Source of the DNA: Candidatus Iainarchaeum sp.
GTDB lineage: Archaea > Iainarchaeota > Iainarchaeia > Iainarchaeales > DTGL01
Direction: 5' to 3'
Length of the DNA: 46,001 nucleotides
Assembly (NCBI GenBank): GCA_021163505.1
Contig: JAGGVE010000004.1
Span: 1-46,001 of the forward strand
The stretch's first letter is position 1. The number at the start of each line of letters is the position of its first letter. The translations under genes were made by a program, and so were the position numbers. The notes beneath the pieces were generated by a model. The model was not told the origin of the DNA and did not search any database. It saw nothing but the letters and a program-made list of their open reading frames with translations. Positions 5,498 through 46,001 of the stretch are shown piece after piece.

Positions 5498-5501
5498 TAA
5501 G

Positions 5502-6419: not shown

Positions 6420-6573
6420 CAGCAACTGGAGAAGGGCAATGTCAAGTTAATGAGGGCGAGAAATTCTTTATGCACTAAAAACCGCATATTTTTAAAAAAA
6501 TTAAAAATCATTTTCTGTATTTTTTGTCCATAAGCCCTCTATTTTAAAATCATAACCTTTTACTAATATAAAT

Positions 6574-7039: not shown

Positions 7040-7074
7040 CGTGTTGCATAACTGATGCTTAAATATGAGTGAGT

Positions 7075-7108
7075 AGCTTGCTTTTCCCTCAGGGGAAAGC
7101 AAACTTTT
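7075..7108 (+). terminator. Hairpin followed by short T tract downstream of hicA
   Basis: TTGCTTTTCCC (7078-7088), loop TCA, GGGGAAAGCAA (7092-7102): 11-bp stem with one G.U pair, then TTTT at 7105-7108. Confidence 0.45.
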
Positions 7109-7249
7109 AAAATGCAATTCGTAAAAATAGAAATAACTAATTTTTATGCCAAATAAGTTAACAGCAACCAAAAAGGGCAAAGATTATTAAAGGGAACGAG
7201 CCACTTTTATTAGGAATTTAAAAAAGATAACGAAAGATGAGGTGATTTT

Positions 7250-7990: not shown

Positions 7991-8002
7991 CAAGGTGGCG
8001 AA

Positions 8003-8335
8003 ATGGTAAGAAGAATCTTAAATACCGTGAAACGCCGCAGAAGAACCCAGAAAAAAAGTGGCAAGTCCCCTATTGTGAGAGGCATAAAGGAAACGAGGCA
8101 CGCAGGGGTGAAAAAAGTAACAAGAGGGCAGGTAATAGAAGAGCTTGACAGGATCATCCATACTAGAAGTGTTAAATACACGAGACTCCCAACAGAAGTA
8201 TTGATCAGAAGACTTACAAGGGAAGGTCGCGAGGTGTTTAAACGGATAGAAAGGAAGGAGGCTTCCGCCCAAGATTTACAGCAATTAAAGGCAGAGATAC
8301 AAAGGATAAAAGAAGAAGCTGGCGCACAGGGGTAA
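8003..8335 (+). CDS. Basic hypothetical protein, 110 aa
   Basis: AAGGTGG RBS before the ATG. Arg/Lys-rich. Shares a 39-aa motif with the next gene, which supports real coding. Confidence 0.7.
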   Translation: MVRRILNTVKRRRRTQKKSGKSPIVRGIKETRHAGVKKVTRGQVIEELDRIIHTRSVKYTRLPTEVLIRRLTREGREVFKRIERKEASAQDLQQLKAEIQRIKEEAGAQG

Positions 8336-8413
8336 CATCAAAATGTTAAACCAAAAGCATTTTATTCTCCTTTTGCTATTTTCTACTATACACCGTTCTG
8401 AGATGTGGGTGAA

Positions 8414-9340
8414 ATGCCAATAAGAAGAAAAAGGCCCTGGAAAGGGGTTAAAGAAACCAAGAGGGCGCAGGTAAGTAAAGTAAACGTAGACCATGTTATA
8501 GAGGAAAAGCACAGAGTGTACCATACAAAAGAAATTAATGTTACGCGGTTGCCGCCGGAAATAAGGGAAAAGGTTTTGGAAAGCCCCGAGGAAATAACTG
8601 AGGCTTTGAGAAAGGTAATGGCCGAAAAAGAGCAGCCAAAAAAGGAAAAGGAAAAACCAAAGCATGAGTTTGCAGATATTCCCTTTCCACCTGGAAAGGT
8701 GTATACTGGCAAGGGAAAAGATGTTCACACTCTTTACAACTTATGGAGCAAGGCGCTGAATAATCAGCTAAAAATGGTAAAAACCTCAATAGAAAGCGCA
8801 CAAAAAACTTTGAAAACAATGGAGGATGAATTAAGAGAAAAAAGGCATGGTAAATACGTAGCAAAAACCCTTGGTACTCTGTTTAAGATTTGGAGCCCCT
8901 CTGAAATTAGAGAGATTGCCGAACATCCAATAAGAACTATGAGCGAAGGGGCCATCGGAACAAGGTGGAAGATAAGAAGATTAAGGGCGGAACTAGAAAT
9001 AATAGCTCGGCATAGAGAAGAATGGGTCAAACTCTATGAAAGGGAACTGCAATTACTGAAAGAGGCGTATGAAAAATACAAAGAAGATCCGACCAAAGAA
9101 AATGCAGAAAGGTTTGCAAAGGTATTGAGAAAGATTATAGAAATGAATGCTGAATTACAACAGGCTTGCACAGCTGAAGCTTTTACCAGATGGAAGCATT
9201 GGAGATTTTTTAAGGACGGATTTGTTGATAAACAGTACTACAAAAGAGTTATAGCCTATGGTAAAAGGTTAAGAAAAGATCCGAAATATATCCCAAGGTT
9301 ATTTGCAGCTGCGTTTGCGGAATTAGACAGAAGACGCTAA
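8414..9340 (+). CDS. Basic alpha-helical/coiled-coil hypothetical protein, 308 aa
   Basis: GGGTGA RBS before ATG 8414 (MPIRRKRPW...), preferred to the track GTG at 8405. Long open frame. Stop overlaps the convergent gene by 4 nt. Confidence 0.8.
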   Translation: MPIRRKRPWKGVKETKRAQVSKVNVDHVIEEKHRVYHTKEINVTRLPPEIREKVLESPEEITEALRKVMAEKEQPKKEKEKPKHEFADIPFPPGKVYTGKGKDVHTLYNLWSKALNNQLKMVKTSIESAQKTLKTMEDELREKRHGKYVAKTLGTLFKIWSPSEIREIAEHPIRTMSEGAIGTRWKIRRLRAELEIIARHREEWVKLYERELQLLKEAYEKYKEDPTKENAERFAKVLRKIIEMNAELQQACTAEAFTRWKHWRFFKDGFVDKQYYKRVIAYGKRLRKDPKYIPRLFAAAFAELDRRR

Positions 9341-12300
9341 CATCGCTTTTTTATGAAATATATGCGCACGCTGACAAAGGAAAGCACAAGCAGCCCTATA
9401 TAAATTATAAGCAGTAATGGTTGCTCTGGCAGCGAAGGCAGATTGAATGGACCACCTCCCAAACCAGCCTGAATGTTCATTATATTATCGCCTGGCTTTG
9501 TTATTATTTGGCCGCCTGGTGTTGCCTGTGTTAGAGCACCGCTTCTAAACGCTTCAAGAAGAGGTAAAAGTTGAGCATTTTCTACATGCCACATTCCCTT
9601 TTCAGGGTCATACCAGAACGAGCCATTGGGTCCTTGAGCGCTTACAAGCGGCTCTGGAGGATAATTATTATAAACAACCATTGGTCTGCCATCCTCGGCA
9701 GTAACCCCTATATTATGCTCACGGCCATTAGCATCCTTTATGTGTATCCCTTCTGGAGTAACTTCAAAGGATTCTATAGGTGCTTCATACACCTCGCCTG
9801 TTTCCTTATTTATTATTCGTATATAGTCTTTGCAACATTCTATTCCAACACACTTGCCATCTGGTTCATATCTGGAAAAGAAAATAAAGCGCCTTGTCGG
9901 AGTTTCGAGAACAGTAAAGGGCCCTGCATTTTGTAGGGCCTGATTAAAACTATTAACCTTATATGCTTCATAGCCACCTGATGCTGATGGGAGAGCCTCT
10001 ATGGAAAATGCTGGTTCTGGACACATTGTTTCTGGGTTTATAACTTCCTCAGGTTTTAAGCGGATCCCGCCAATGAAATCCTGCGGAACATCCACGGCTT
10101 TACTGCGCTTTAGCCATATTATCAGTTCGTGAGTGTCGGGCTTATATATTATAACGCCATTTTCAAAAATAATTGATTCGAGCAGGCCTGCCTCTTTCCG
10201 CACACTGTTGGTTAAAGCAGTATTGCGGTTGGCTTGTATAATCACTTTTGCATTCTCCCCTTCAACCATTCTCCTTGGTGTACCCTCCGCAACTATCCTC
10301 TTCTGATCGTTTAAGGCATGGATGCTATACATATCAGTGTTTATGGAAAGAACCTTTCCAAATACTGGCTCGAGGTTTAGCCTTTCCCTGTTTGGGTTCT
10401 CATACGGAACGCCGATCTGATATTCTATTCCCTGCAGTATGCAATCAGAAACCTCGGGAACAAGAACGAAAAGCTCAGAATCAATGTTCATTTCAAACAA
10501 TGGCTCGTTCGAATCAGGCAGCCCAACTAAAGTGTAGCGCTTTGGAATCTCTTCTGCGGGAATGTTTGTATTTGTGGATGTCAGGCGAGAAGCAATATTA
10601 TTATCAACAATAGTGTCAAGAATGTTTCCATTTTGATCTATAAGGAAGATTTTGCCCGCGTTAAAATCTACGAGCAATGCAGTATTCTTATCAGCTGAGC
10701 TTATTATTTTATGACCCGATGTTTTGTATTTCATTGGCGAAGTTTCACCTTTAAACCAGAAAGAGAACAGTTGTTCACCCTCAAGCGTTCCGACAGTTGA
10801 ACCTTCCATATGAACATTGGCTTGCACAATGTTGTCCTGCCTTGCACCATGAACAAACTGTTCAACCATTGAGTTTAATTTTTCTGCTGCCTGAGTGGTA
10901 TAGCTATTTTTATCAGAAACGAACATTGATGTTAGGGCATTGGCAAATGCATCTATGGAATTCAGGGCAGCTTCTGTAGAGAGCTGATTTGCCGCTTCCG
11001 TTTTATTACTCTGCTCTTCAGGAGCAGGTACAAATATATGTGTGTAGTAGCCACCGTCTACGTCTACACAGTCTTGAAGCTTTGGAGCAATAACAAGTTG
11101 CTGGAAAGTACTTCCAAATACGCCTGCAAACCCAAAAAGCCAATACCCTGCATTTTCTGCAAAAGCAAGGCCCCCGCCAATAAGTGCTGGATTCATCCAT
11201 TTGGGTAATGAGCCCAGCGTTACTTTCTCCACAGCATCTCTGCAGGTTTCTTTCTTGCGTATCGCTTCTTCCAAGGAAATCCTGGTGCTTCCTGAAACAC
11301 CCTGTTCTTTCCCTTCAAGATCTGTGTGGTGTGTGAATGTTATAAGAGTGCTACCCTTTTTCTTCGCTTTTTCCGAAACAATATCTTCAAGTATATAGGC
11401 GTCAAGCTTTCTGCCAGAATAAAAGCTTGAAAGGAAGTAGGAATAATCCCTGCCTGCACGGATTGAAACTCCGCAGCTTTCACAGCTCTCTGGAGTTGTG
11501 GCATAAAATGCAAGGTTTTCAACAGTATTTCTAATCTGATTGTTTTTGAGTTTATTATATATTTCCTGCAGTGGTTTGAAATTTGCAAACAGGTTTTTGG
11601 CGATGAATTCCCAAGGCATAACTTGAAGCATTCGGTTGAACATATCGCCTTGGTCAGAGCCTTCGTGTGAAAAAAAGTCTATAAATGCATCATTATAGAG
11701 CTCGCTTGAGCCAAGAGGCCAGCGCACCTCTCGCCAAGTATCTGGGAGCATATATGCGGAAGCCCACCTTTGATTTGCACCGCGTTTGCCAATCCAGTAA
11801 AGGTTAAAGAGAGCAGTCCATTTTATTCCGCCTTTTGGCCTCATATAGTTGTGGAAGAATTTATCTTGGTAAGAGATCGCTCTATCGAGCAAACTTAAAT
11901 AGCGCCTCTTCATAAATCCCTGAGCTTCCAAAGTATGCCTCATATAATCTGTATTCAAAGGAGCAAATAGCTTGAGATTCAGCAGGTTCCTTTCTTCGAG
12001 AAGCTTTGAAGCGAAATCTTCTGGGCTGAGCTCAGCAGCAAGGGTTTTTCCTTCTGAATATAAAGGAATTGAACCTGTAGCATGTTTTTTTATTTGGGGC
12101 AGGCTCCAATCTGCAACAGGTACAACATTTCCGCTGTCAAGCTTAACAAACATATCTCTGTATCTGTACCAGTTGGTTTCAAGGTCCTCAACAGTAACAT
12201 CACGTATGTGCCTCCCCGCAGGTTCCAAACGCCAGAGCTTTAGATTCCTGCCTGTTGTTTCATATATGGAGCCTGCAAAATGTCCGTCCTTTCTGAATTT

Positions 12301-13872
12301 ATCAAGCAAATCATACATATATGTTGAATCTCCTGCCAGCCAAGGTGGCGAGGTTGCGCCCTTCTGCTTCACGCTGTACGTCCATAGCCCTGTTGGGCTG
12401 CTCCTTGCAAACCATCCTGGAAGATCGGGTATAACCATAGAATCGGAGTAATCTATTATAACATTGCTCACAACCTTGCCGGTATCTATGCGTGCACCAA
12501 TTTCAGCCGGTGACCCAAATCCGTAAACTTTACGTATAGCGCTGTAACGCTTTTCAGCATGTTTTATCAAATCTGCTTGGGTTTTTGTATAGATGTCCAG
12601 GTCCTTTACAAATTTGTAAAGCTCTCTCTGAGTAATCGGATCATCTATTTTTCTCAGCCATCCATCTGGGGCAAGCCATTCCTTAACAAGCTTGTCTCTG
12701 GTTCCTGGATTTAGAAGAGCATAGCCCTTTGTCCAGCCCTGGCCTTCACTGAGCAATGCTCGAAGCTTCCCCACCTCTGGGTACTGTGTGGCTCTTAACT
12801 TCAATCTTGCTCTGAGACGTCTACCGAAAAAACTATTTGGATTAGCATAAAGCTTCCTTCGCATATAGCTCGCTATGCTGCTATCAGAGAAGCGCCAGGG
12901 AAATACCTTGCTCATTCCAAGATGCTTAAATAATAGGCGTCCCTTTCCAAGCAGGGTCGGCATAACTGTGGAAAACGTCATATCAAACGAAAACCACTGG
13001 TTATAGTATTTGTCGAAAAGCGAATATATAGAAATTACACAATCCGCACTGTTGCAGGTTGTTTGCCCATATGCATAGAAGTTGTATGTGAGAATTGAAT
13101 TTGGAATAACCTTCCCTGGAACCCTAACATAGGTTTCTATATTCGCATCATTGACATCGGTAAAAGCCAAACGCATTTTGAGGTCTTCTTCTGCACTTTC
13201 AGGCAGGCCAAGCTGTTCCCTTATGTGCCTGTAATCCTCATCTGTGAGATCTTCCTGATTTTTATCCTTAAGGGCAGGTACAGAATCTTTAAGCACCTTC
13301 CATAGATTCTTAAAGTCGCCTGTTATTCCAGTGCCAGAATTGCGCAGAGAAAGCTGCTTGCCGGCAAGCGGGCATGGAATATTCTTATCCTTTAAATTTA
13401 CGCATCGTCCAACGCGAAGCGTATCGGTGAGCACTATACCAAAAGCGTATGGGCCATTTATCCAGTTATCCGATAGGTGGATTGCACTATTTAGATCAAA
13501 CTTCTGGTCTGCAAGCTCAACCTTTTGCGCCTGCCCAGACTCTTTACCCAGAGGGATTATCACAACAGGGTTCTCAAGCTTATCCTGTTCCCGTGTTTTG
13601 CCATTGCTTCCAAACTCAGAACCAGTAAAACCATCTGAAAGAAGCTTTAAAATATTAAAAGAGTCCTCTGTGCTAAGCTGTCCAATATCACAGGTAAAGT
13701 GAGCTCTCTTCTCTGCTGCACTTTTTTGACCCTGTAGGAATAAGCTTTTACTTTCAACCAGACCATATGTGTAATTGGCATTGAATAGCAGAGCAATAAT
13801 AACAGCTACAAAAAAATCATAGATAAGTGAGCGCACACCTTTACTGCCCTTCCTTGTATCGTTTTTCAGCAT
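9337..13872 (-). CDS. Large (1511 aa) membrane protein of unknown function with N-terminal signal/TM, internal hydrophobic segments and C-terminal TM
   Basis: AAGGAG RBS upstream on the minus strand. Hydrophobic FFVAVIIALLF N-terminus. Paired cysteines in the acidic flanking regions. C-terminal LLLIIYIGLLVLSFVSVRIYFIKKR anchor. Confidence 0.9.
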   Translation of the reverse strand: MLKNDTRKGSKGVRSLIYDFFVAVIIALLFNANYTYGLVESKSLFLQGQKSAAEKRAHFTCDIGQLSTEDSFNILKLLSDGFTGSEFGSNGKTREQDKLENPVVIIPLGKESGQAQKVELADQKFDLNSAIHLSDNWINGPYAFGIVLTDTLRVGRCVNLKDKNIPCPLAGKQLSLRNSGTGITGDFKNLWKVLKDSVPALKDKNQEDLTDEDYRHIREQLGLPESAEEDLKMRLAFTDVNDANIETYVRVPGKVIPNSILTYNFYAYGQTTCNSADCVISIYSLFDKYYNQWFSFDMTFSTVMPTLLGKGRLLFKHLGMSKVFPWRFSDSSIASYMRRKLYANPNSFFGRRLRARLKLRATQYPEVGKLRALLSEGQGWTKGYALLNPGTRDKLVKEWLAPDGWLRKIDDPITQRELYKFVKDLDIYTKTQADLIKHAEKRYSAIRKVYGFGSPAEIGARIDTGKVVSNVIIDYSDSMVIPDLPGWFARSSPTGLWTYSVKQKGATSPPWLAGDSTYMYDLLDKFRKDGHFAGSIYETTGRNLKLWRLEPAGRHIRDVTVEDLETNWYRYRDMFVKLDSGNVVPVADWSLPQIKKHATGSIPLYSEGKTLAAELSPEDFASKLLEERNLLNLKLFAPLNTDYMRHTLEAQGFMKRRYLSLLDRAISYQDKFFHNYMRPKGGIKWTALFNLYWIGKRGANQRWASAYMLPDTWREVRWPLGSSELYNDAFIDFFSHEGSDQGDMFNRMLQVMPWEFIAKNLFANFKPLQEIYNKLKNNQIRNTVENLAFYATTPESCESCGVSIRAGRDYSYFLSSFYSGRKLDAYILEDIVSEKAKKKGSTLITFTHHTDLEGKEQGVSGSTRISLEEAIRKKETCRDAVEKVTLGSLPKWMNPALIGGGLAFAENAGYWLFGFAGVFGSTFQQLVIAPKLQDCVDVDGGYYTHIFVPAPEEQSNKTEAANQLSTEAALNSIDAFANALTSMFVSDKNSYTTQAAEKLNSMVEQFVHGARQDNIVQANVHMEGSTVGTLEGEQLFSFWFKGETSPMKYKTSGHKIISSADKNTALLVDFNAGKIFLIDQNGNILDTIVDNNIASRLTSTNTNIPAEEIPKRYTLVGLPDSNEPLFEMNIDSELFVLVPEVSDCILQGIEYQIGVPYENPNRERLNLEPVFGKVLSINTDMYSIHALNDQKRIVAEGTPRRMVEGENAKVIIQANRNTALTNSVRKEAGLLESIIFENGVIIYKPDTHELIIWLKRSKAVDVPQDFIGGIRLKPEEVINPETMCPEPAFSIEALPSASGGYEAYKVNSFNQALQNAGPFTVLETPTRRFIFFSRYEPDGKCVGIECCKDYIRIINKETGEVYEAPIESFEVTPEGIHIKDANGREHNIGVTAEDGRPMVVYNNYPPEPLVSAQGPNGSFWYDPEKGMWHVENAQLLPLLEAFRSGALTQATPGGQIITKPGDNIMNIQAGLGGGPFNLPSLPEQPLLLIIYIGLLVLSFVSVRIYFIKKRC

Positions 13873-13897
13873 AGAGACTCCTTTTGGTATATTATAT

Positions 13898-14434
13898 TTA
13901 AGAGGAATAAAGAAAAAAAATCACCCCTATAAAAACCCACTTAAAGAAAAAAATAAACATTCCAAATGCAATCATGCAGCAAATATAGGTTGAAACAAAA
14001 AGGCAGAGGTTTCTGTTGAATTTGTGTTTTTGCAAATATTTAAACATAAGGCTGCCTAAAACTATAAACGGAACTGAAAAGAGTGAAAAGAATGCCGAAA
14101 CCAGTAGCACCTTTACAACACCTATAGCAAAAATTCTCAAAAAATCAAAAAGCCCAAGAGTAAGCTCATCTGGCTTTACCCCAAGGGATTCGCGAAAGAT
14201 TGCCGAGAAGAAAGGAGCAAAGTATACAAAGGCAAAAAAGATGAAGGAAAAAAAGAATGCAACTGTTGCAACGCTAATGATCCAGGAAACCCCTGTCTTT
14301 TTGACAAACCTGCGATGAATGTAGCCGCCCAAGATCGATAAAAGAAAGAAAATGATGGAAAGAGCAAACGCTCCTCTAAGGATATCCCATATAGAAAACA
14401 TTAAATTTAAGAATTCCCCTATTGGTATAGACAT
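13898..14434 (-). CDS. Small polytopic membrane protein (4-5 TM, Phe-rich)
   Basis: Continuous hydrophobic helices. Probable start ATG 14434 (or 14401), because the track extension to 14632 runs into the divergent gene. Ends 25 nt upstream of the 1511-aa gene, so the two are probably co-transcribed. Confidence 0.75.
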   Translation of the reverse strand: MSIPIGEFLNLMFSIWDILRGAFALSIIFFLLSILGGYIHRRFVKKTGVSWIISVATVAFFFSFIFFAFVYFAPFFSAIFRESLGVKPDELTLGLFDFLRIFAIGVVKVLLVSAFFSLFSVPFIVLGSLMFKYLQKHKFNRNLCLFVSTYICCMIAFGMFIFFFKWVFIGVIFFLYSS

Positions 14435-14489
14435 CAATGAAATAAAATGTGTGTTCCTATATAAATATATTTTGCTAATGGTGAAAAGA
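14435..14489. promoter_or_regulatory. Short divergent promoter region with central TATA element
   Basis: TATATAAATATAT at about 14458-14470 sits midway between the two divergent start codons. GGTGA RBS at 14480-14484. Confidence 0.55.
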
Positions 14490-15257
14490 ATGGAGGAAGA
14501 ACTTGATATGGGAAAAATAGATGAAGAATTTGGTGCAAAAGAGGCAGAAGAAGAGATAGATCTAAGCAAAATACCAAGAAGGAAACGAAGATTCTTCAGA
14601 AACAATAAAATATTATTAAAAGCCTTAAGCAAACATATTCAGAAAACACCCGATGTAAAGGAAATCGAAAAAAGGAAAATTATAGAAAAACTGAGATGGC
14701 AGCTAAGCATGATAGAAAAGAAGGAGCTTCTGAACCTTGCAGATGTGCTATTTGAACAACTTAACGATAAAGAAGCCGCAAGCATAGTGCGCGCAAATAT
14801 AAGGGCAAAGAAGGCAGTAAGGCCAGAGCTTTCTGAAGAAGATTGTAAAGAAATTGTGGAGAATATTTACGAACAACTCAGGGAGGCTGCAGAGGAAGAA
14901 AGGCGCTTAAAGCACAAAGAAAAGAAAAAGAAGAAGGAAGTGGAAAAAATAAAGAAAACACTTAAGAGAGCAATAAGGACAACATCAGGTGCGAAAAGAG
15001 AAAAACGAAACATAGGGAAAAGAAAGCGTGAGGAAATAAAGCCTAAAAAACCAGCTGTAAAAGAGCCTGCAGGAGAAGAGTTACCGGCTGACAGTGAGGA
15101 TATATTGAGCATGCTAAAAGAGGAAAGCGCTGGACCTGGCGAAGCAATGTTAGAAACAGAGATTGGCGGGGGCTCAGAGGACGCTGAGCTGGATGTATTT
15201 AAGGAGCTGGAAGAACTAACTGAAGAAAAACCAAAGAAAAAAAGCAATAAAACGTAA
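14490..15257 (+). CDS. Highly charged soluble hypothetical protein (about 255 aa), helical/disordered
   Basis: GGTGA RBS then ATG 14490 (MEEELDMGKIDEEFG). No hydrophobic segment. Alternating acidic and basic blocks. Confidence 0.75.
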   Translation: MEEELDMGKIDEEFGAKEAEEEIDLSKIPRRKRRFFRNNKILLKALSKHIQKTPDVKEIEKRKIIEKLRWQLSMIEKKELLNLADVLFEQLNDKEAASIVRANIRAKKAVRPELSEEDCKEIVENIYEQLREAAEEERRLKHKEKKKKKEVEKIKKTLKRAIRTTSGAKREKRNIGKRKREEIKPKKPAVKEPAGEELPADSEDILSMLKEESAGPGEAMLETEIGGGSEDAELDVFKELEELTEEKPKKKSNKT

Positions 15258-15298
15258 AAGACCATGCGCAACTTGCAACGGCACAAGAAAGAAGTAAT

Positions 15299-15336
15299 CA
15301 AAAATTATATAAAGCACTAAATTTATTAAATTATAA
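15299..15336 (+). promoter_or_regulatory. Putative TATA elements upstream of giant protein 1
   Basis: TTATATAAA (15305-15313) and TTTATTAAA (15322-15330) in an AT-rich intergenic spacer. Confidence 0.4.
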
Positions 15337-15402
15337 AAATATAGGAAAGATAAAGCTGAGCGGTGATCTGGAAAAGGCTGAAATATTATAGCGTGGTATT
15401 GT

Positions 15403-23451: not shown

Positions 23452-23467
23452 TTAAAAAGGTGAAAAG

Positions 23468-25156: not shown

Positions 25157-25173
25157 GAATGAAAAATATAAAG

Positions 25174-25189
25174 GGAAAATATATAAATA
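25174..25189 (+). promoter_or_regulatory. Putative BRE-TATA promoter of giant protein 2
   Basis: GGAAAA followed by TATATAAATA. GGAGG RBS at about 25233 before ATG 25246. Confidence 0.5.
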
Positions 25190-25245
25190 AGAAAAGTGCT
25201 AACTAATTAAGAAAAAATGATATTTTATACTGGAGGCTTCTGGAT

Positions 25246-32694: not shown

Positions 32695-32795
32695 AAATAT
32701 TAAATAGAATAAACAAATACATAAATTAAATAAAAACAAAAAAATAGAAAGGAATAAAATAAAAAATGATAATCAATTAATATGAGGAAGTTAAC

Positions 32796-35700: not shown

Positions 35701-38700
35701 AAGCTACCGAACTAGAGGTAAGTGAGGCTAGCGTAAAGATAAAGGATAAATTTGGAGCAACTCTTGTAAGCACAAGTACTACATCGCGAGGCTTAGCAGA
35801 GATTACGTTGCCTGCATTAATGCCTGCTGATGTCATTTATTTAGTTGTTGAGAAACCAGACTATGCTGAATTCACGAAAGAAATAAGAGTTGATGAGAAG
35901 GTGCTCAAGATAGAGCCTGAAAAAATAGGCATTCAGCTCAATGTGCATACAAAACCTCTGGATTCCGTTACCGTAAGGCTTCTAAACGAAACAGAGATGG
36001 AGCTGAAGGTTGAATCTATCGAGCTTAGGGGCGACTTCTTAGGTTTAATAGATAATGAAAAGGTGCACGATTGGCTGACTTCAGAATACTTCGGGAGAAC
36101 TATTGCTGCAAGAGACAAGCTTGATATTGCTCTTAAGGTGCAGCTTAGCGATTTGGGAAAGCTCCTGAACGAAAGCAAGCAGCTATCTGGAAAGCTTATT
36201 ATCGTTGTTTCAAGTGCTGGGCAAAGCTGGCTCGCGGAGAGAGACGTTGATATAACTATTGGCTTAGGTGGTGAAGTGGACAATCCTGCCTGCCTAATTT
36301 TAAGTATAAATGAGTGGAAAGCTGCAACGAAAAGCAACGAGGTAAGAACAGATTTCACAATAGTAAACACCTGCACACTAAACGGAAAACCTATAAAGCT
36401 CCAGAATCTAAGTGCAAAGATTGAATGGCAAAGCAACCAGCTTGGCGACTATTATATAGAAATGGGCGAAAATACCATTGAGTTGCGCGGAGCATACTTC
36501 AAAGTGCTCAGGGGCACAATAAATGAAGAAGAAGAGCTGCCCGCAATGTTAACATTTGCTCCAGATGGCGGTGTGACAGGTAAAGCCCAAGCAACGATAA
36601 CTATAAGCGCTGAACACCCAACGCAGGGTGGGAAAGAAGTACTAACTGCTTCAATACAGACCGAGATAGATATTATAAGCCTTGATAACTGCGTGAGGTT
36701 TGATAAAGACCTTGTGAGAGTAAAGCCCGGTGAAGAGGGAAGCTTCACTATAGAAACTAAGGACTGTGGTGCAGCAGTTGACTTCATGTTAGACACTGAA
36801 TTGGCGCTCGCTGAGAAGGAATTTACTCTACAATCCTCAGATTCGAAACAGGTTACCATTTTAGGTGGCGAATACATTCCGGGGCAGTATCCAATCTACG
36901 TGAAGACGCGTAGTGTAGGAGAAAGCGAATACTCCATAAAGAAATTGATAAGGGTAATAATGGAACCAGAAGGCTGCCTGCGATTGAACCGCTATGAATA
37001 CGATATCTATGATGATCCAAACGACCCTTACGATGGCTTCGACGTCGGAAAGCTTATAAATGAATGCTACAAAAAGAAAGAAAACATTACAATAAGCTTC
37101 GATGAGCGCAATTGGCTTGAAGCAATGAAAACAGGTGCTGTCTGGGCAATAGTTGGTTTTATCTATGGTGGCATTCAGTCGGTAAGGCATGGCAAGGACT
37201 TCTTTGGGTTCCCGTTGCCTTCTACTGTCTGCGAGGAAGCTGGTTATGAATACTGCGGCGCAAAGATGGAGTGTAAAGGAGAGAAAATAAAGGTTGTAAA
37301 TAATGTAACGTGCTGTGCTTCTGAGTGCATAGCTGAGGAAGTAGACGTCAAAGAAAAAATCTGTGCTAAGAAAGGAGCTCGCTACTGCGGCTTCGGTAAC
37401 TGTCCAGAAGGCAAGGAAAAGATAGTTGAAGGTGTGAAGTGTTGCACAGATAAATGCATAACTGAACAGTTGTTAGAGAATAGCGATGCTAAATGTAAGG
37501 ATGTTAACGAAAACTACGACTTCTGCTCGGTGCCGCCATTTTCGGATGTAGAAGAGATATGTCCAGCGCAGTATGGTTATGAACGCGTTGGTGATATTTG
37601 GTGCTGTAGAGGACCTTGTCAGAAAGCCCAGCCGTCTTTGTTTGAAGAGATATGTAAAAATCCAGGTAGCGGCGAGGGGCCTTTCTATTATTGTAATCCA
37701 ACACTAGGGGAGAGCTGTCCTTCTGAGGATAAAATCGTGAACGTTTCGGGTGTTGCTTGCTGCACGGTAGAATGTGTCGGCGGAGCAACTGGAACAGAGA
37801 CTCCAAATGAATCCAAACTAAGCCCGGAAAATGCACTGTCAGCATGCCAGCAGGCAAACCCAACATATACTTACTGCAATCCTGCTGCAAACCTTACTTG
37901 TAAAGCGCTACCTGGCGCTGAACTCAACCCAATAGTTGAAGTCACCTATGTAAATGATGCTACTGGGGAGGAGATTCCAATAAATTGCTGTGATACTCGC
38001 TATGGTCAGTGCGTAGCTGAAACAACCCAACCTGCAAAAACTGGAGAAATGTCGCCTGCGGATACGCAAGAAAGCTTAACCTGCTATAATGAAGGAATGG
38101 GCCCATATTGCCCAAAGCGCGAAGGCATGGAAAGCTTCTGCGAGAACCAAGCTGATGGCACAACTGCATTACCGATAATGACTAATGGTGTTCCATGCTG
38201 TCCAAAAGGGTTCAACTGTGAGTATGCGCAGGCTGGAAGCAATACTTACGTTAGCGGTGATGCTGTAGTACAGATAGGCGCTCCGTGCCCAAAAGCCGGC
38301 TATGGTGTGCAATGTCCAATAGAAGGAACATGTTCAAGCACATATTGCGGAAACTGCATTAAAAACCCCAGAAAACCTTTAAAAGTGTCGACTACGTATT
38401 GCTGCCCCTACTCCAGCTACAATAAGTGCATTCTTCCAGACGGCCGCGAGGTTGTTGAAGGTCAGACTTATACACAAGCAGCAACGCAAACACAAACACC
38501 AGGAAACGCAGCGAGCACTCAATACACATATTCAAATGAACAGATCTGTGCGCAACCAAGCCTAATAGACCCGCGATGGCCGGCTGGTGTGTATAATTAC
38601 TACTATTGTCACTCTGGCGAAGAATGTAGTGGAAGTCCTGTAAAAATATATTATAACGGAGATTATTCACAAGGATACGTTGAGTGTTGCGATGGCGCTT

Positions 38701-41672
38701 GTGTTCCAAAAGGTTCAGCAAGCACCAGCTTAATGCCAAGAAGCATAACTGGCACGACCACTGGTACGCAAACAACTACCACAACAGGCACTGGCTGCCC
38801 AGAAGGCCTTATGTGTTTGCCAAAAGAGGATGGTAGCTCTGGCACGGAAATCACAATAGATCCTATAACAGGAGAATATACGATTAGCTGTGCAACTGAA
38901 TGCGTTACTCCGGAAGAATATGAGAGAAGAACAAATCCTGAATGGCAGAGTACCAAAGAGAGCGAATTAACTGACGCACAGATATGCGAGCAAAAAGGTT
39001 ATCTGTATTGTGAGCCGGGCTATAGTTGCATGTGCACCGGCGCTGTTTGTACAGCTAATCCTAACGTTACTGTTGAATATAATGGTCGCACAGTAAACTG
39101 CTGTGATCCTTTAAAGCATGGGGAATGTGTAGCCAGTGGCGCATCATCTGCTCCAGCGGCCACATTACCAAAAGCTCCAGCAGGCTTCCTAGCTATAACC
39201 GATATAGGCAGTTTACTTGGCAAATCGTTCGATATATTTGGGGAAATAACGAATATTGAAGACCCATGGACAGGAGCTTTGATTGGCTTTGTTGCAGGAA
39301 CGCTCTTCAAGTACTGGGAACAGAGCAAGAATGTTGGTGAATTTCCAGTGACTGTTGCAGTGAAAGACCTTGTGATAAATTCAGTGAAGATAATAATGCC
39401 AAAAGGCCTTGAAGAGGAAGAGGAAACGCTAATAAGCGTTGAGATGCGCGAATCCAAGGTAGAAAGCACTACAGAGAATCCATTAGGCATAGAGGAAACT
39501 GAGCTCATATTCAAGAACAATGGAATAAGTCAGGAAGAGCCCTATAAGCCTATCTATAGGGTGCTTAAGGTTGAGGGTGAGCGCTTAGATTATAACACGG
39601 AGTACTTTATAGACAGCAAGAAAAAAGCGCAGAAGATGCGCGAAATGGAGCCTACTGTCAAGAGTCGTGAGCCCTTCACGCAAAAATTCCATCTGCAGTT
39701 TAACGCTTACAAGCCGAAGCCAACGGATATTGTTGTAAGGCCTGAAACGAGCTGCAAGATTGGTAACTTGATAGGTTCTACGGGCAAAAATGCTTTGCCT
39801 AAAGTTAAGTTCAAGTGGAACTGGCGCGATATAGAGATCAATGAATGTGATGAAGGAGGCAACGAAACATATTGTGATGCAGTACAATTCAGCATAGAGC
39901 TCCTCAAGAAGATACATAAAGTTGATGAGCTGCTAAGAGGGCAGCAGGTTAACTGCCCGTCTGCAGAGGGCATACTCAGCGAAAAAACACAAAGTCTAGA
40001 TGAACTAAAGCTTGATGTTGCTCTAACCAGAATAAAGATTGAAAAGAGCGGAAAGAATGCAAAGGTAATAGGCACTATCGAGAGCAATAACAACAAAGAG
40101 ATGACTGTCAATGTAGTAATAACTCTGCAAAAGGATGGAAGCACTGAAACAATTGCCTGCCCGGAAGGAGCGGAAAAAGCGGTGAAGGTTATAAGCAAAG
40201 AAGAGGTTTCCTGTACATTCAACGATTTGAGTGATGGTTTATACACTGCCAGAATAACAATCTATCCACAGCTCAATACTTGCGAATCAGAATGTAAGAA
40301 TGAAAATACTGGCAATGATGTGCTGTTCACAAAGCTTCTTGTTGGTGGCGCAGCAGGCGTATTCGAAAAGTGCGAACCTTACAGCACAGATCGCCTGGAA
40401 GAGTTTATAGCAGCTAACCCGAACAACACCAACCTTAAGAAAGCCTTGGAGCTCGTAAGCTTCAATGCTTATCTTATAAAAGATGGCTATACTCTGGACT
40501 TCAGAAAAGACTTCCATGAGTTCAGCGAGGCTAAAGACTTCTTCAATGCACCAACATGGTATAAAGGCGAATCAGGTCTGGGCAAATACTTTGTAAACCC
40601 GGAGTTGCTTGAGTTTAAGTCGCCATTCTTAAGGCCTGAGTTTGGTTATCTGCCAGCAGGCAAATACCATGTGAGAATAAATATCACTTATGATAACGAC
40701 AGCTGGTGCTTGTTTGATGAGACCACACCAGATGCAAAGATTGAGATTTATTTAGAGCGTTTAGCAACGCCGGAGCCTGATTCGGTATTCTATTATCTGC
40801 CATTTGATGGTTTAATCGGCGTTGATAGCGAGAACGGCAGGCAAGGGTATGGAATAAACTTCAGACAGGAGTCAGAGCAAAGCATATTAATAAATGAAGA
40901 TATTTCGCAGCCTGTTAGAACAACTACAATCGCAAACTCAACCCCAATTCCAGGCGGCTGGCTTTACGCAAAAGAAGTTCAAAACTTTAAGACTCTGAAC
41001 AACGATATGCGCGGCGTGCTCTTAGATATAGAGAGGGGCTCAGAAGATACTTATATGGTGTTCAGTCCAAGCAGAGCAACGCCGGTGATATTGCATATCA
41101 CTGGTGGAAATAGAAGAAAGGCCTATGCGTTCTACCAAGTTACTGTAGATGGACAACCGCAACAAGGCTCAAGCTATTTAGCTACATGGACCGGCATAGG
41201 AAAAGGCTGTAGAGACTTCAGTGATGCAGAGGTCACAGAAACGTTCAATAATAGGCGCGATGTTAGAGGCGGCACAGGTAGAGTGAAATGTGCGGGCAGC
41301 TTCGGTACGCATCAATATGGCATAGAATGGTGCGATGTGAAGAGAAGGGGCAGCGTATTCCTTAAAACAGTGTTCTTCACGCCTCTGCGAAGCGCAAGCA
41401 TACTTGAGCTTGTAGAAGCTGCTGACGATGCCACATTCATAGCGCCAAATGGTACTGGAAAGCAGATAGAGTTAAGCGGTATAACAGGCCTGAACATTAC
41501 CTCTGTGGAGAAGATCTTGGAGCTTGTTGAGCAAGAAAAAGTTTGTGTTGCGGGTGTAGGCAACAGCGTTAAAGCCACATTCTTCTGGAACCCAAAGAAT
41601 TTAATAGATTCAACGCTTTCTAATATAGTGGAAAGCGTACCACAGCAGTGCATAGCGCCAGAAGCCAGCTGA
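32796..41672 (+). CDS. Giant membrane-anchored protein 3 (2958 aa), paralog with Cys-rich repeat array between glycine-zipper helices
   Basis: TM FALLLLIIAVLIGYVLISF. Same repeats and core motifs (FGLHIRTG, KWVNLEW, WRAWA...RDPVD...LYARAY). YCDAVQF and YLPFDG motifs. C-terminal VCV...FWNP. GAGGA RBS. Confidence 0.92.
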   Translation: MGILQSLKDLYYHLEDKYYDLIDRISTRIPIYKVTDAIDKVVPSFALLLLIIAVLIGYVLISFTPAIMPKKAEISVLVEYRDRYGAKYPLEGASVTIINGELSTTIDTNEDGMLSTPYYAKIGDVIQISIAKDGFKPKPYSTELEVDSEIEHIHVVLDEIIKFKDVRFRLVDEDGNPIANKFVSLSFECGNDAEAPADIETMTDYTGLVEVNDVPIECDPLLVSVSAKGYEALVREPVRDGSAIVLKPKEELKPPEEKGRIIVSVLFKGEPVTDPIAVELYKDTGAAPMFMEYKTTDNGQVIFEVLAGTYKVKTRATQKYDSAESNFITVGADEYRTVTLEIRERIIGHIKLKVIDEANEEPLKDVRVTLMKESTQVAFDETDENGYVQFNLTKDESFTVVIDHPEYCLARLTDVRKSDSVIEVKLKKYTGDCGGVLIAKVVDEDDNPIANAMVGIFDEKGNSLGWAERITDINGEAEFKGLRAGKYKFFAYKGYGSGWSDVVEYRVREAVEERATIVLHIPKATIELRVVNYDSEPLPFSDVTLKNADTDKLLAGPVKVEDLNGKISFTVDAGIPFYAYITNPQYASYSTEAITLKPNEQRFMQVVLEPKRISGEIKVDFLGLFKGDKTASVVAAGKEYIAKFRLSVPEQANYQKFGLHIRTGKYNMMEKDFIYIKDVYAPGKPNIIRGTSFNPGQGITYDTQFLSADGSKWVNLEWASGRTGTIYVNARIKIKKTAVEEELPIFWRAWAVKENKVIRDPVDYSLGDTASEQDLYARAYKRTFQVGMEKLCTDKWCVSLKILDIENDIAEYVDETYSAKVGKEYKLSFSILNNSPYETDTFDNVQLKILNSEKNITFKEYEIIGDTITQGTANANETSYIKIGNLPRNKEVRGEITFVPNAAMAGTIMIRLHDPARHAHIFEKEILVDIAAANEFIVEFKTASEEFAAEPPLLPSGIENTVVIRVRDKATELEVSEASVKIKDKFGATLVSTSTTSRGLAEITLPALMPADVIYLVVEKPDYAEFTKEIRVDEKVLKIEPEKIGIQLNVHTKPLDSVTVRLLNETEMELKVESIELRGDFLGLIDNEKVHDWLTSEYFGRTIAARDKLDIALKVQLSDLGKLLNESKQLSGKLIIVVSSAGQSWLAERDVDITIGLGGEVDNPACLILSINEWKAATKSNEVRTDFTIVNTCTLNGKPIKLQNLSAKIEWQSNQLGDYYIEMGENTIELRGAYFKVLRGTINEEEELPAMLTFAPDGGVTGKAQATITISAEHPTQGGKEVLTASIQTEIDIISLDNCVRFDKDLVRVKPGEEGSFTIETKDCGAAVDFMLDTELALAEKEFTLQSSDSKQVTILGGEYIPGQYPIYVKTRSVGESEYSIKKLIRVIMEPEGCLRLNRYEYDIYDDPNDPYDGFDVGKLINECYKKKENITISFDERNWLEAMKTGAVWAIVGFIYGGIQSVRHGKDFFGFPLPSTVCEEAGYEYCGAKMECKGEKIKVVNNVTCCASECIAEEVDVKEKICAKKGARYCGFGNCPEGKEKIVEGVKCCTDKCITEQLLENSDAKCKDVNENYDFCSVPPFSDVEEICPAQYGYERVGDIWCCRGPCQKAQPSLFEEICKNPGSGEGPFYYCNPTLGESCPSEDKIVNVSGVACCTVECVGGATGTETPNESKLSPENALSACQQANPTYTYCNPAANLTCKALPGAELNPIVEVTYVNDATGEEIPINCCDTRYGQCVAETTQPAKTGEMSPADTQESLTCYNEGMGPYCPKREGMESFCENQADGTTALPIMTNGVPCCPKGFNCEYAQAGSNTYVSGDAVVQIGAPCPKAGYGVQCPIEGTCSSTYCGNCIKNPRKPLKVSTTYCCPYSSYNKCILPDGREVVEGQTYTQAATQTQTPGNAASTQYTYSNEQICAQPSLIDPRWPAGVYNYYYCHSGEECSGSPVKIYYNGDYSQGYVECCDGACVPKGSASTSLMPRSITGTTTGTQTTTTTGTGCPEGLMCLPKEDGSSGTEITIDPITGEYTISCATECVTPEEYERRTNPEWQSTKESELTDAQICEQKGYLYCEPGYSCMCTGAVCTANPNVTVEYNGRTVNCCDPLKHGECVASGASSAPAATLPKAPAGFLAITDIGSLLGKSFDIFGEITNIEDPWTGALIGFVAGTLFKYWEQSKNVGEFPVTVAVKDLVINSVKIIMPKGLEEEEETLISVEMRESKVESTTENPLGIEETELIFKNNGISQEEPYKPIYRVLKVEGERLDYNTEYFIDSKKKAQKMREMEPTVKSREPFTQKFHLQFNAYKPKPTDIVVRPETSCKIGNLIGSTGKNALPKVKFKWNWRDIEINECDEGGNETYCDAVQFSIELLKKIHKVDELLRGQQVNCPSAEGILSEKTQSLDELKLDVALTRIKIEKSGKNAKVIGTIESNNNKEMTVNVVITLQKDGSTETIACPEGAEKAVKVISKEEVSCTFNDLSDGLYTARITIYPQLNTCESECKNENTGNDVLFTKLLVGGAAGVFEKCEPYSTDRLEEFIAANPNNTNLKKALELVSFNAYLIKDGYTLDFRKDFHEFSEAKDFFNAPTWYKGESGLGKYFVNPELLEFKSPFLRPEFGYLPAGKYHVRINITYDNDSWCLFDETTPDAKIEIYLERLATPEPDSVFYYLPFDGLIGVDSENGRQGYGINFRQESEQSILINEDISQPVRTTTIANSTPIPGGWLYAKEVQNFKTLNNDMRGVLLDIERGSEDTYMVFSPSRATPVILHITGGNRRKAYAFYQVTVDGQPQQGSSYLATWTGIGKGCRDFSDAEVTETFNNRRDVRGGTGRVKCAGSFGTHQYGIEWCDVKRRGSVFLKTVFFTPLRSASILELVEAADDATFIAPNGTGKQIELSGITGLNITSVEKILELVEQEKVCVAGVGNSVKATFFWNPKNLIDSTLSNIVESVPQQCIAPEAS
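37230..39128 (+). repeat. Intragenic array of about nine six-cysteine modules (C-xn-YC-xn-C-xn-CC-xn-C) plus one partial module
   Basis: Examples: CEEAGYEYCGAKMECKGEKIKVVNNVTCCASEC; CAKKGARYCGFGNCPEGKEKIVEGVKCCTDKC; CEQKGYLYCEPGYSC...NCCDPLKHGEC. Modules are separated by T/Q/P-rich linkers. The repeat is visible only at protein level. Confidence 0.85.
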
Positions 41673-41684
41673 AGGTGATAGCCT

Positions 41685-44600: not shown

Positions 44601-46001
44601 GATAGCGAGGGATTTGTAGAGTTTGAAATTCCAGAGTCTTACCCGGGAACCAGATTAACTATCGAAGTGGAAAAAATTGGGTATGCGCCAGTATCTGTTG
44701 AAAGGTTTGTAGATTCAAATATAGCTCTGGTGATGCCCCGAGCAATATTTTCCTCGCTGAATACAACCTCAAAGACTGATGAAAGTTTGCCTCTTTCTAT
44801 AGAGAATCTCACTGGTACTGCTCTAATAATTAAAGAAATAAACCTTAAAGGAAACTTCAAGGGCTTGCTTAATGAAGAAGCTATGCAAGCTTATGCAAAT
44901 ACAAATGCAGGCCTGCAAGTAGATTCTAATGAAAGCTTAGATATTGTTATAAAAACTGTGCTCGCATTCAACGCAGCAAGCTTGCTTGAGAGTAACGAAT
45001 CGCTAAGCGGCAATGTTGAAATAGTGCTTTATAATCCACTCTATAACTTTGAATACGCTGTATTAGTTCCTCTAACAGTTGATATCGGCTTAGGTGGCTT
45101 GCCTGATAATGCTCCTTGCATAGTGCTTTCTGGTCCGGATATTCCAGAATGGAGCGTAACAACGCTTGATAATATTGCCAGAACAGAATTTGAAATCAGC
45201 AACCTTTGCATGAAAAACGGTCAGAAAATAGATTTAGAGAATCTGCAGGTTAAGCTTGAATGGCAGAGCGATTCAAAAAAAGCAGGCGTGTTAGAATTAA
45301 CTATTATAGCACCTGATGGAAGCTCAGTAAGTCAGGTGCTCAAGTCAGGGCAGTGGGTAAAATTCTTGGACAATTTCAAGCAGGCTGATTATGGTGGCTA
45401 TCAAGCAATCCTAACATTTACTCCAAAAACAGGGTATATGGGCGAGACTGCCAAATTTACGATCTATATAGATGGTCAAACGAGAACAGATGCCGGCCTG
45501 AAGTTTGTAGGTGCTGATAATACAATAAATGGCAATATACTCATACTAAACCTTGAAGACTGTATAAAGTATCCAAAGGAGAAGATTGAGCTATCTCCAG
45601 AGCAGGACGAAGCAACATTTAGCCTGGATGCAAGCGCGTGTGGTATTGATGTATACATAACACTCTGTATGGGTGATCCACGTTGCACCGGTGGGACCAC
45701 AGAAGGTGGTATTACCTTAATGCCGCACGATGAAATTGGATTAACGCAAGCTGATCCAGAAGAAACAATAACTGTTTATCGCGAAGATATTCCAGGCATT
45801 TATGGAATAACATTGTATGCGAGAACACCGCAAACGAGCTACAGAAAAATTGACACAATAGATGTGCTGGTCAGGCCAGAAACAAATAGCTACTTCGAGC
45901 TTAAGAGGTATGAATTTAACCTGAGCAAAGAAGCTAACTGGCAGGATTCAACAGAGCTAAAGAATAAAATGCTACTTGAAAACGTGCTTATAACATCTAC
46001 A
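41685..46001 (+). CDS. Giant membrane-anchored protein 4 (more than 1439 aa, 3'-truncated by window edge; absent from ORF track)
   Basis: AAGGTGAT RBS overlapping the previous stop, then GTG 41685: MSIKDNLTDFWETVKESYYDLEEKIGFPPILLLLALLVVVLLYFLFFVPK. The same frame gives core motifs PLIEFLG (43479), AGFHFRVG, AKWVTLEW, YYRSYSV...RSPVDAELG...KDALYAECF and is still open at the last base (...ENVLITST). Confidence 0.92.
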   Translation, partial: MSIKDNLTDFWETVKESYYDLEEKIGFPPILLLLALLVVVLLYFLFFVPKEPIQPKEVELTVFFKDEEGNALPDLEVNVSVDGNIIKKFTNSRGAVVIEVKPNSEIVVSVDSANYESISKTFFIGENNRTETITLKLKTKPLEKRTLRFEDEKGLIKGKKIRAKISCANKAIPPWYEEDTDMDGIIEVTLPLNCGEISVDAEIEGYERQEAAHMKGSEILLFFKKIEPPKGNLRIRVVDEEQNLILNKNIKVSIEKDGERDYKFTQGYGIVDFKNLLVGTYNIYVSDPSGDYAASRMVAEVIAKQTVEVTIEMKKAIKAVLKVKVIDRNTGVAIEGATVKLMENYETVDERTTSENGLVEFAIFDLKDYSVIAKKEGGIGTGYFAKSVDVNAADLNSLITIELEKITQENSGKTIVKVIDEDGRPVKDAKVMFRYKETEAIVELNSEQNYKLTDANGTAIFYLGTIEEEIYPYAIKYPATGGSANQAKRIDPYEENHFEVLMHIGESTLNIKALKTDGTLLEESYFEVFSATDGSSISNGKIPMVDGTYSYSIKADKKIYVVVSKEGYLSYESEEIALWPGQSYEINAIMRKVGEVREPLIEFLGAFKGDVKEEALRANNEYEFKFNLVFPDNNDLDKAGFHFRVGDNNSVELEPMFIKDVKTTADVIIKGKTYRPKKGQALEELTESDAKWVTLEWIKPKSGTYKVSVVVKIRQAVFPKTKLSFYYRSYSVKGSRYIRSPVDAELGEQENTQSKDALYAECFSATYFEGSEPLCSEAFCYKGDWLYDKQEDIFLEKPYSLTVLGDYNFLFSIMNNSVNEYNEVRLVVKNVTNKKKDNALDFEKVIFEGPAKQTTELIPENSEFTIENIEGFTYTKEISANIRFKAKKETTTGIEIQLIADKQVVFSKEVEFIVYSNDLLNVKIEPERFIPFKKHTLKATVEDSQGNKISDALVRVIRETPDNVKQVMHAFTDSEGFVEFEIPESYPGTRLTIEVEKIGYAPVSVERFVDSNIALVMPRAIFSSLNTTSKTDESLPLSIENLTGTALIIKEINLKGNFKGLLNEEAMQAYANTNAGLQVDSNESLDIVIKTVLAFNAASLLESNESLSGNVEIVLYNPLYNFEYAVLVPLTVDIGLGGLPDNAPCIVLSGPDIPEWSVTTLDNIARTEFEISNLCMKNGQKIDLENLQVKLEWQSDSKKAGVLELTIIAPDGSSVSQVLKSGQWVKFLDNFKQADYGGYQAILTFTPKTGYMGETAKFTIYIDGQTRTDAGLKFVGADNTINGNILILNLEDCIKYPKEKIELSPEQDEATFSLDASACGIDVYITLCMGDPRCTGGTTEGGITLMPHDEIGLTQADPEETITVYREDIPGIYGITLYARTPQTSYRKIDTIDVLVRPETNSYFELKRYEFNLSKEANWQDSTELKNKMLLENVLITST

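Follow-up and report, generated by a model that had tools for sequence, protein, structure and literature searches.

A conserved operon of four giant anchored proteins and a prepilin-like protein, linked to pilus-type motor genes, in the archaeal order Iainarchaeales

The DNA analysed here, referred to as the window, is a complete contig of 46,001 bp (contig C10) from a genome of Candidatus Iainarchaeum sp. (G000; 958,664 bp in 52 contigs, 93.6% complete), and it carries an operon in which four paralogous giant proteins are encoded together with a prepilin-like protein, P0006. G numbers other than G000 denote relatives, and C numbers denote contigs of G000 unless stated. A first-pass annotation, made from the letters of the window alone, had described eight open reading frames (ORFs) between 9337 and 46001, and all eight are present where, and on the strand on which, it had placed them (Table 1). 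The five plus-strand genes from giant 1 onward are separated by gaps of 16, 89, 101, and 12 bp. Giant 4 runs off the end of the contig, and its C-terminal 794 amino acids (aa) lie on contig C45 (10637-13018, minus strand), where they show 68% identity to residues 1541-2331 of the 2331-aa orthologue in G003. Judged from that orthologue, about 95 aa are unassembled between C10 and C45, and the join of the two contigs rests on orthologues, their ends showing no overlap. With the part on the second contig included, the operon spans 33 kb, or 3.4% of the genome. The annotation had also placed the organism among the DPANN archaea, which is right, with named homologues labelled Candidatus Diapherotrites. 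We assign the organism to Iainarchaeota because every named homologue carries the label Candidatus Diapherotrites, 'ainarchaeum', or 'archaeon'. About 20 of 77 homologues are named, and apart from one odd JGI label their public protein names read 'hypothetical' or 'carboxypeptidase-like regulatory domain-containing'. A literature search of main texts, supplementary tables not included, found no description of this operon.

Table 1. Features of the window, with positions counted from its first base
Feature	Position	Strand	Basis
Surface-type protein, C-terminal 240 aa, cut by contig start	1-723	+	no Pfam match
Surface-type protein, 539 aa	746-2365	+	no Pfam match
T2SSE ATPase with N-terminal 4Fe-4S domain	3169-4923	+	Pfam T2SSE E 1.8e-37, Fer4 families
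T2SSF platform proteins, two	4913-5497, 5502-6419	+	Pfam E 1.3e-11, 9.6e-08
PAC2-family gene	7250-7990	+	Pfam E 2e-40
P0005, 1511 aa	9337-13872	-	hydrophobic segment at either end
P0007, small polytopic membrane protein, listed ORF 244 aa	13898-14632	-	hydrophobic segments
P0008, Lys/Glu-rich soluble protein, listed ORF 301 aa	14352-15257	+	composition
Giant 1, 2682 aa	15403-23451	+	
Giant 1, parts: leader; transmembrane segment; beta-sandwich array with 'core' domain; C-terminal module of ~1280 aa	aa 1-45; 46-64; to ~1400; C-terminal		
Pilin-like P0006, 562 aa	23468-25156	+	
Giant 2, 2482 aa	25246-32694	+	
Giant 3, 2958 aa	32796-41672	+	
Giant 3, variable Cys-rich insert	~37134-39317	+	
Giant 3, distal module	39363-41669	+	
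Giant 4, N-terminal 1439 aa, open at contig end	41685-46001	+	

The view of the giants as paralogues is borne out by both BLASTP and profile-profile comparison. Among giants 2, 3, and 4, identity is 23-28% across alignments of about 1200-1300 aa, with E-values of 1e-52 to 1e-102; giant 1 stands further off (E 1e-15 to 1e-23). When profiles built from 11 orthologues per giant were compared with one another, every pair of giants matched with 100% probability from residue 1 to about 1400. The four proposed paralogues are confirmed, and four is not the full number, as G000 holds at least a fifth one in the form of fragments on C51 and C12. The N-terminal tail, single transmembrane segment, and beta-sandwich array that the annotation had described were recovered by Pfam and by a scan for hydrophobic segments. 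Each giant has one strong hydrophobic segment, near the N-terminus, and thus an N-terminal anchor only, and its rod of beta-sandwich domains is about 1350 aa long. The Pfam matches in the first ~1000 aa belong only to CarboxypepD_reg, Big_1, SpaA, SdrD_B, bMG3, and MG4, and an NCBIfam scan shows nothing further on the giants. Across 43 orthologues of the four families, Pfam finds Ig-like families with few exceptions, namely Amidase_2, a cupredoxin, and a weak Glucosaminidase match in giant 1 of G027, and a few families each found in a single member, for example Cupredoxin_1 in a giant 2 and fn3 in a giant 3. A match over the length of the giants to a described S-layer or adhesin family was looked for with Pfam and NCBIfam, and none was found.

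Conservation was assessed in an order sample of 41 genomes (29 families, 31 genera), a phylum sample of 215 genomes, and 5 genomes of sister orders, and neighbourhoods of 60 kb around the pilin-like gene were compared in 10 relatives from different families. The arrangement giant 1, P0006, giant 2, giant 3, giant 4 is found in 10 of the 10 relatives, and the best match at each position is the same-position paralogue in all 10 neighbourhoods, showing both conserved synteny and one-to-one orthology. In 29 further genomes, matches to the distal module of the giants lie 14-28 kb 3' of the pilin gene, on the same contig and strand. No contrary gene order occurs among the matches listed, and extra paralogues exist outside the operon (C51 and C12 in G000, a fifth giant in G014, and C1:176261 of G027). 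A FastTree phylogeny of the first 1450 aa of 45 giants contains one clade per position, with support of 100 for giant 1, 96 for giant 2, and 93 for giant 3; 10 of the 11 giant-4 sequences fall in one clade, and the long-branched sequence of G014 pairs with its own extra copy. The branching of the genomes is identical within each position clade. These position-specific clades with parallel topology place the quadruplication before the origin of the order and show that each copy has been retained. A scattered, lineage-specific expansion is not what was found. Because the order is fixed, the clades are parallel, and no described family matches, the annotation's proposal that the giants are non-redundant is well supported in the sense that they are co-inherited parts of one system. 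The hetero-oligomer that it also proposed, for attachment, envelope penetration, or bridge formation, is a hypothesis. The distal-module profile detects 190 of the 215 genomes of the phylum sample, all from the one order Iainarchaeales, and it detects none of the sister-order genomes listed. A related-locus search of genome contigs returned one locus only.

The genome of G014, assembled in one contig of 0.84 Mb, has two peculiarities at its giants. Giant 3 is split there into ORFs of 1868 and 966 aa (L025:6798-12401 and 12436-15333), and beyond giant 4 and an 811-aa gene lies the fifth giant with the leader, 2153 aa in length and extended at the N-terminus by a long Lys-rich stretch (L035 region).

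A leader of about 45 aa precedes the transmembrane segment and is common to all four giant families and to all genomes, with the consensus LKDLYYxLEDKYYxLLDKLDxxIPVYKVVDPIDKxxPSF. It is shorter in giants 2 and 4 of this genus and canonical in giant 3. In the whole G000 genome the strict leader pattern matches only giants 1 and 3 and the C51 fragment, and the leader is therefore not a general sorting signal. A search of representative proteins, which come without taxonomic labels, returned 1053 carriers at E<=0.001. Among the matches listed (150), the leader lies at or near the N-terminus (start residue 1-53), and the full-length proteins have about 2000-4500 aa. The leader is a new N-terminal element that occurs on giants only among the proteins inspected.

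The prepilin-like N-terminus noted earlier in P0006 was confirmed and is conserved in 32 sequences. It consists of a class-III-type signal, M-N-x-[KR]-[AG] followed by F-N-L-F-T-A-L-L-A, with a hydrophobic stretch after it, and F6, F9, A11, L12, and five Cys are invariant in the alignments. The AlphaFold2 (AF2) model (predicted local distance difference test, pLDDT, 86.0; predicted template modelling score, pTM, 0.82) shows a helix at residues 4-77 carrying a Cys-rich head, and a profile search of the PDB gave 0 matches at E<=1. Within G000 the strict P0006-type N-terminal pattern is found in P0006 only, and the genome holds three A24 prepilin peptidases (Peptidase_A24). P0006 is present in 39 of the 41 genomes of the order sample and in 171 of the 215 of the phylum sample. 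A small major pilin gene was not recognised in the operon or in the 10 neighbourhoods, other pilin types not having been searched for. Counted over the whole genome, five T2SSE ATPases and three A24 peptidases in 0.96 Mb amount to a heavy investment in type IV filaments.

The annotation had given all three complete giants a shared distal domain. This holds for giants 2 and 3, which align end to end, and giant 4 has the same module, but giant 1 is without it. Within its C-terminal ~1280 aa, giant 1 has about 60 aa in common with the others, around 'YCDAxQxS' (hhalign probability 36%, E 3.8e-4), and its C-terminal module in G000 has no match in Pfam or the PDB (profile search, 0 at E<=1). The AF2 model of the distal module, made with 22 sequences, has a pLDDT of 84.5 and a pTM of 0.66. 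Comparison of this model with the PDB and BFVD by Foldseek returned only a CARDB/Ig-like subdomain (TMq <=0.14), and the module has no PDB profile match at E<=1 and no match in Pfam or NCBIfam. The distal module and the pilin head have confidently predicted structures and no known relatives. In giant 3 the C-terminal distal module is among the best conserved parts, with a column identity of 42-56%. The variable insert of giant 3 contains 62 Cys in 750 aa, with at least seven C..C..CC..C repeats, and its column identity is 17-28%, compared with 44-56% elsewhere in giant 3; it is Cys-rich only in family f1, and six orthologues of other families are not. The giant-4 orthologues measure 2255-2691 aa. 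In 9 of 10, a variable insert at the junction of the rod and the distal module is flanked by one or two hydrophobic segments rich in Gly and Ala (Kyte-Doolittle <=3.3).

The cluster had been drawn from 9337 to 46001. The genes within these limits stand, but synteny shows that the unit reaches further in the 5' direction, to the T2SSE and T2SSF genes at 3169-6419. A second motor lies on contig C49 of the same genome, where the gene for a divergent 777-aa T2SSE ATPase neighbours those for a T2SSF protein of 784 aa and a vWA protein of 1401 aa. Orthologues of the 777-aa ATPase occur in 41 of the 41 genomes of the order sample, at 54-87% identity. This ATPase gene and the pilin gene share a contig in 20 genomes, and they are separated by <=14 kb in 12 of these (just 5' of giant 1), by 15-36 kb in 7, and by 468 kb in 1. 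The 1511-aa protein P0005 is double-anchored, as the annotation had it, with hydrophobic segments at residues 12-30 and 1486-1504, and it has no usable match in the protein atlas search, Pfam, or NCBIfam. It is a core gene, single-copy in 41 of the 41 order genomes, and is loosely linked to the operon: 16 genomes have P0005 and the pilin gene on one contig, at a distance of 9-49 kb on the side of giant 1 in 15 of them and of 105 kb in G014. The operon sits in a super-locus with two T2SSE/T2SSF motor sets and the 1511-aa protein. T2SSE and T2SSF proteins encoded together with structural genes, as in a type IV filament system, are found at the locus.

Some features of the motor region were observed alongside. 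In many genomes (e.g., G002, G001, and G006), matches to the 777-aa ATPase span one TGA, TAA, or TAG and belong to open frames of roughly 1300-1600 aa; a single stop separates the ATPase ORF from the platform ORF in G002, where both share one frame, which may explain the G002 case. Extra ORFs between the ATPase and giant 1 encode 2737 aa in G022 (L026:834-9044) and 1887 aa in G037 (L029). Both are lineage-specific, without similarity to window proteins, and the one in G037 has Pro/Thr/Val repeats and long Ala/Lys/Glu-rich stretches.

The sister orders share a good part of this arrangement. An orthologue of the 777-aa ATPase and a weak homologue of P0005 (23-27% identity) are present in 5 of the 5 genomes, each of which also encodes two or three giants that bear the leader (1500-2560 aa). 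All 5 likewise have a pilin-like gene, with [KR]G and then F-N/S-L-F, and it adjoins the giants in 4 of them. The gene order in G198 is giant, ATPase-777, platform, other genes, P0005-like gene, PAC2, T2SSF, T2SSF, and Fer4-T2SSE. G208 has the same order from ATPase-777 on, with no giant 5' of it on that contig, and the Fer4-T2SSE homologues of the two genomes show 36-40% identity to the window ATPase. The last five genes in G198 and G208 mirror window positions 3169-13872, a syntenic block that is class-wide, and the unit is therefore older and larger than first stated. As in the window, the PAC2 gene of the sister orders sits between the T2SSF genes and the P0005-like gene; it is an odd member among pilus and surface genes.

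A link between the giants and peptidoglycan hydrolases was found in G000 and in some relatives. Positions 13116-16175 of contig C11 (minus strand; L042:1116-4176) encode a 1020-aa secreted protein that combines a giant-2 distal subdomain, a GH73- or lysozyme-like domain, and a C-terminal part of 260 aa. The protein shares about the last 350-370 aa of giant 2 (hhalign 99.7%, E 1.2e-25), and other genomes of the genus encode its conserved 260-aa C-terminal part by itself, in proteins of ~720 aa. PDB matches of a five-sequence GH73-like profile are FlgJ (E 0.04) and two phage proteins, Gp29 (E 7e-7) and a cell wall hydrolase (E 7.7e-4). Giant 1 of G027 has Amidase_2 (E 1e-28) and a GH73-like domain at its C-terminal end, and G030 giant 1 also has a GH73-like domain there; in G027 and G028 this domain occurs in separate genes beside the locus as well. 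Searching proteins with the C11 module brought up 4 close relatives, none of them a new fusion. Hydrolase domains on the giant-1 tip or on a giant-2-type subdomain in some lineages point to bacterial envelopes as one putative target.

We read the operon as a pilus-machinery-linked, multi-giant apparatus for contact with other cells that is conserved across the order Iainarchaeales, and we consider this reading to stand at an even balance between right and wrong. Because the operon takes up 3.4% of a genome of ~1 Mb, is kept gene for gene, and is tied to pilus-type motors, it is a strong candidate for the means by which these cells touch their surroundings or partners. For the assembly, processing, localisation, and target of the apparatus we infer the following scheme. 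The giants would insert with the N-terminus inside and the C-terminus outside, so that the distal modules project past the envelope. The common leader would dock all four giants to one cytoplasmic or membrane partner, most plausibly the 777-aa ATPase with the 784-aa platform protein. P0006 would be cut by one of the three A24 peptidases, and the processed protein could act as a large minor-pilin-like protein that nucleates or couples assembly. The distal modules would then bind the surface of another cell, and contact with a membrane might be made by the paired Gly/Ala-rich hydrophobic segments of giants 3 and 4.

Several results weigh against such an apparatus. A Foldseek comparison of P0006 with the PDB gave 0 matches at E<=1e-3, and so no pilin structure, and none of the curated pilin profiles in Pfam and NCBIfam matches it at E<=0.01; because the motif is kept and no curated model or solved relative was found, P0006 resembles a prepilin by motif and stands outside the described pilin families. 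Giant 1 retains the Gly before 'IPSF' that would suit a prepilin peptidase, giants 3 and 4 have lost it, and prepilin-type processing of the giants is therefore doubtful. The 777-aa ATPase gene is on a contig other than that of the operon in G000 and G003. Sister orders without the distal module have this ATPase and the P0005-like protein too, and the motors could therefore serve something else. On the hydrolase side, the GH73-like domain of the C11 protein scores 23.7 bits with Pfam Glucosaminidase, below the curated cut-off of 30.2, and the GH73-like module is patchy, being found in 12 of 41 genomes and 7 of 31 genera. There are no RNA runs among the public runs listed for window positions 21001-31000, which bears on expression. 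Finally, the operon adjoins housekeeping genes such as PolB in relatives, and strict universality beside such genes suits a constitutive envelope role equally well.

This last point leads to the main and serious rival, in which the giants, with or without the 1511-aa protein, form the pillars or canopy of an S-layer-like envelope scaffold, and the pilin-like gene and the motors are mere neighbours. Throughout the order the genes belong to the core, are close to single-copy, and show synteny and co-divergence, as would be expected of a constitutive structure, and the density of N-x-S/T sequons in the giants (6.0-8.3 per 1000 aa, against a background of 4.4) is consistent with it as well. Archaeal S-layer proteins usually have a Sec signal and a C-terminal anchor. 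The giants have no signal peptide with a C-terminal anchor (P0005 does have a C-terminal transmembrane segment) and match no S-layer family; instead, they are held by an N-terminal signal-anchor preceded by a conserved cytoplasmic leader. The hypervariable inserts, the tip enzyme domains of some lineages, and the pairing of giants and pilin, which persists in sister orders with differing giants, also argue against a scaffold. In its favour, archaeal type IV pilus loci commonly encode S-layer-like large proteins (PMC4858521). We regard the scaffold as possible and somewhat unlikely.

Alternatively, each giant might be an adhesin with a substrate of its own (mineral, polymer, biofilm, or cell), the four being co-transcribed without joint assembly. 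An Ig-like rod with a distal head is the build of many stand-alone adhesins, and the extra paralogues outside the operon in G000, G014, and G027 would fit this explanation. However, independent adhesins usually vary in number and order, whereas here the four positions are fixed with one-to-one orthology over the order, one conserved cytoplasmic leader is common to all giants, and the pilin-like gene is always interleaved, all of which makes separate adhesins quite improbable. Delivery of polymorphic toxins or effectors, with rods carrying variable toxic modules to competitors, would suit the variable inserts amid conserved parts and the muralytic domains that end giant 1 in G027 and G030, but it is judged highly improbable given that the C-terminal distal modules are so well conserved, that no immunity-like small genes lie 3' of the giants in the 10 neighbourhoods, and that Pfam detects no toxin family in the 43 orthologues scanned.

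The contact apparatus can be compared with several described systems. Type IV pili have large minor pilins or tip adhesins such as CofB/TcpB and PilY1. The locus resembles these in that a large prepilin-type protein is encoded with very large surface proteins and T2SSE/T2SSF proteins, in a genome with prepilin peptidase. It differs in that the giants are not Sec-secreted and have their own N-terminal transmembrane segment and 45-aa leader, and in that four fixed paralogues are present and no major pilin was recognised. There is also no match to type IV pilus proteins in sequence (Pfam and NCBIfam) or fold; CofB/TcpB and PilY1 are set apart here without a direct sequence comparison. The same differences apply to the DUF2341 'PilY-like' large proteins encoded in Methanococcus pilus loci (PMC4858521). 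Giant1-5 of Apilactobacillus kunkeei are also encoded by consecutive giant-protein genes that take up several percent of a small genome and co-diverge with their neighbours, but they are bacterial, have beta-solenoid heads, occur in few genera, and recombine, whereas the giants here are fixed across an archaeal order and accompanied by a pilin-like gene (PMC12863079). The VARTIG and archaeal multi-Ig loci share large Ig-domain proteins, multigene loci, and MG-like domains with the operon; they are hypervariable, confined to Thermococcales, and followed by variable 3' genes, unlike the conserved operon here (PMC8416519).

Giant surface proteins are found in other ultra-small cells as well. The operon differs from two such cases, the SPEARE proteins and the Archaeovorins, which are described as single multi-enzyme giants with unrelated domains and are not known to have a paralogue quartet or a pilin partner. 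The SPEARE proteins of Nanohaloarchaeum antarcticus reportedly serve to contact or degrade the envelope of another cell. The Archaeovorins of Omnitrophota are described as giant surface proteins with a proposed role in contacting or degrading the envelope of another cell (10.1101/2023.11.21.568195).

A wider reading extends the contact apparatus to a class-wide new archaeal organelle. In it, giants of about 2500 aa, whose long leader would end in a prepilin-like site of ancestral type ([KR]G, then IPSFP and a hydrophobic helix), would be loaded by the dedicated ATPase and platform and primed by the minor-pilin-like protein. The four giants would form an extendable structure able to grip and breach the envelope of another cell, in some lineages a bacterial one. 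We put this reading forward tentatively and think it unlikely; if true, Iainarchaeota would have their first known machine for contact with a host or prey. This lineage (Diapherotrites) is the least understood 'D' of DPANN. It has been reported as possibly free-living, with a dependent lifestyle as the alternative (PMC10936187), and the texts consulted mention no culture of it. The operon offers handles in the form of antibody or tag targets for cryo-electron tomography, marker genes for metaproteomics, and a testable muralytic module, and the analysis defines several modules without known relatives and a new N-terminal leader.

The remaining genes of the window are less conserved or lie outside the operon. 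The protein described as having 4-5 transmembrane segments, P0007, has hydrophobic segments, but its conserved part begins at Met67 (~178 aa, 13898-14434), as estimated from the G003 orthologue; only G003 has a homologue among the 10 neighbourhoods, and it aligns to residues 60-244. The charged soluble protein, P0008, is indeed charged (21% acidic and 24% basic residues) and has no hydrophobic segment, but its start is probably Met43 (14478), again estimated from the G003 orthologue. Its homologues are found 5' of giant 1 in G003 and G002 only among the 10 neighbourhoods. Neither protein, and neither P0005 nor P0006, has a match in Pfam or NCBIfam. The 539-aa surface-type protein near the contig start has a signal-like N-terminus, a Cys-rich part, a Pro/Thr linker, a C-terminal transmembrane segment, and a Lys/Glu-rich tail, and a relative with 26% identity is encoded directly 5' of giant 1 in G032.

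The MG-type domains of the giants raised the possibility of an alpha-2-macroglobulin/thioester (A2M/TEP) identity. This was rejected, with matches to MG-type beta-sandwiches only and a CxEQ motif that is absent or not conserved: of the 11 members in each giant family, 0 have it in families 1, 2, and 4, and 2 have it in family 3, at places that do not align. In public sequencing data, DNA near-identical to window positions 21001-31000 (at least 0.34 of sampled words) is present in 10 runs from 5 studies, which are labelled as hydrothermal vent or sediment metagenomes or carry only a coded organism label.

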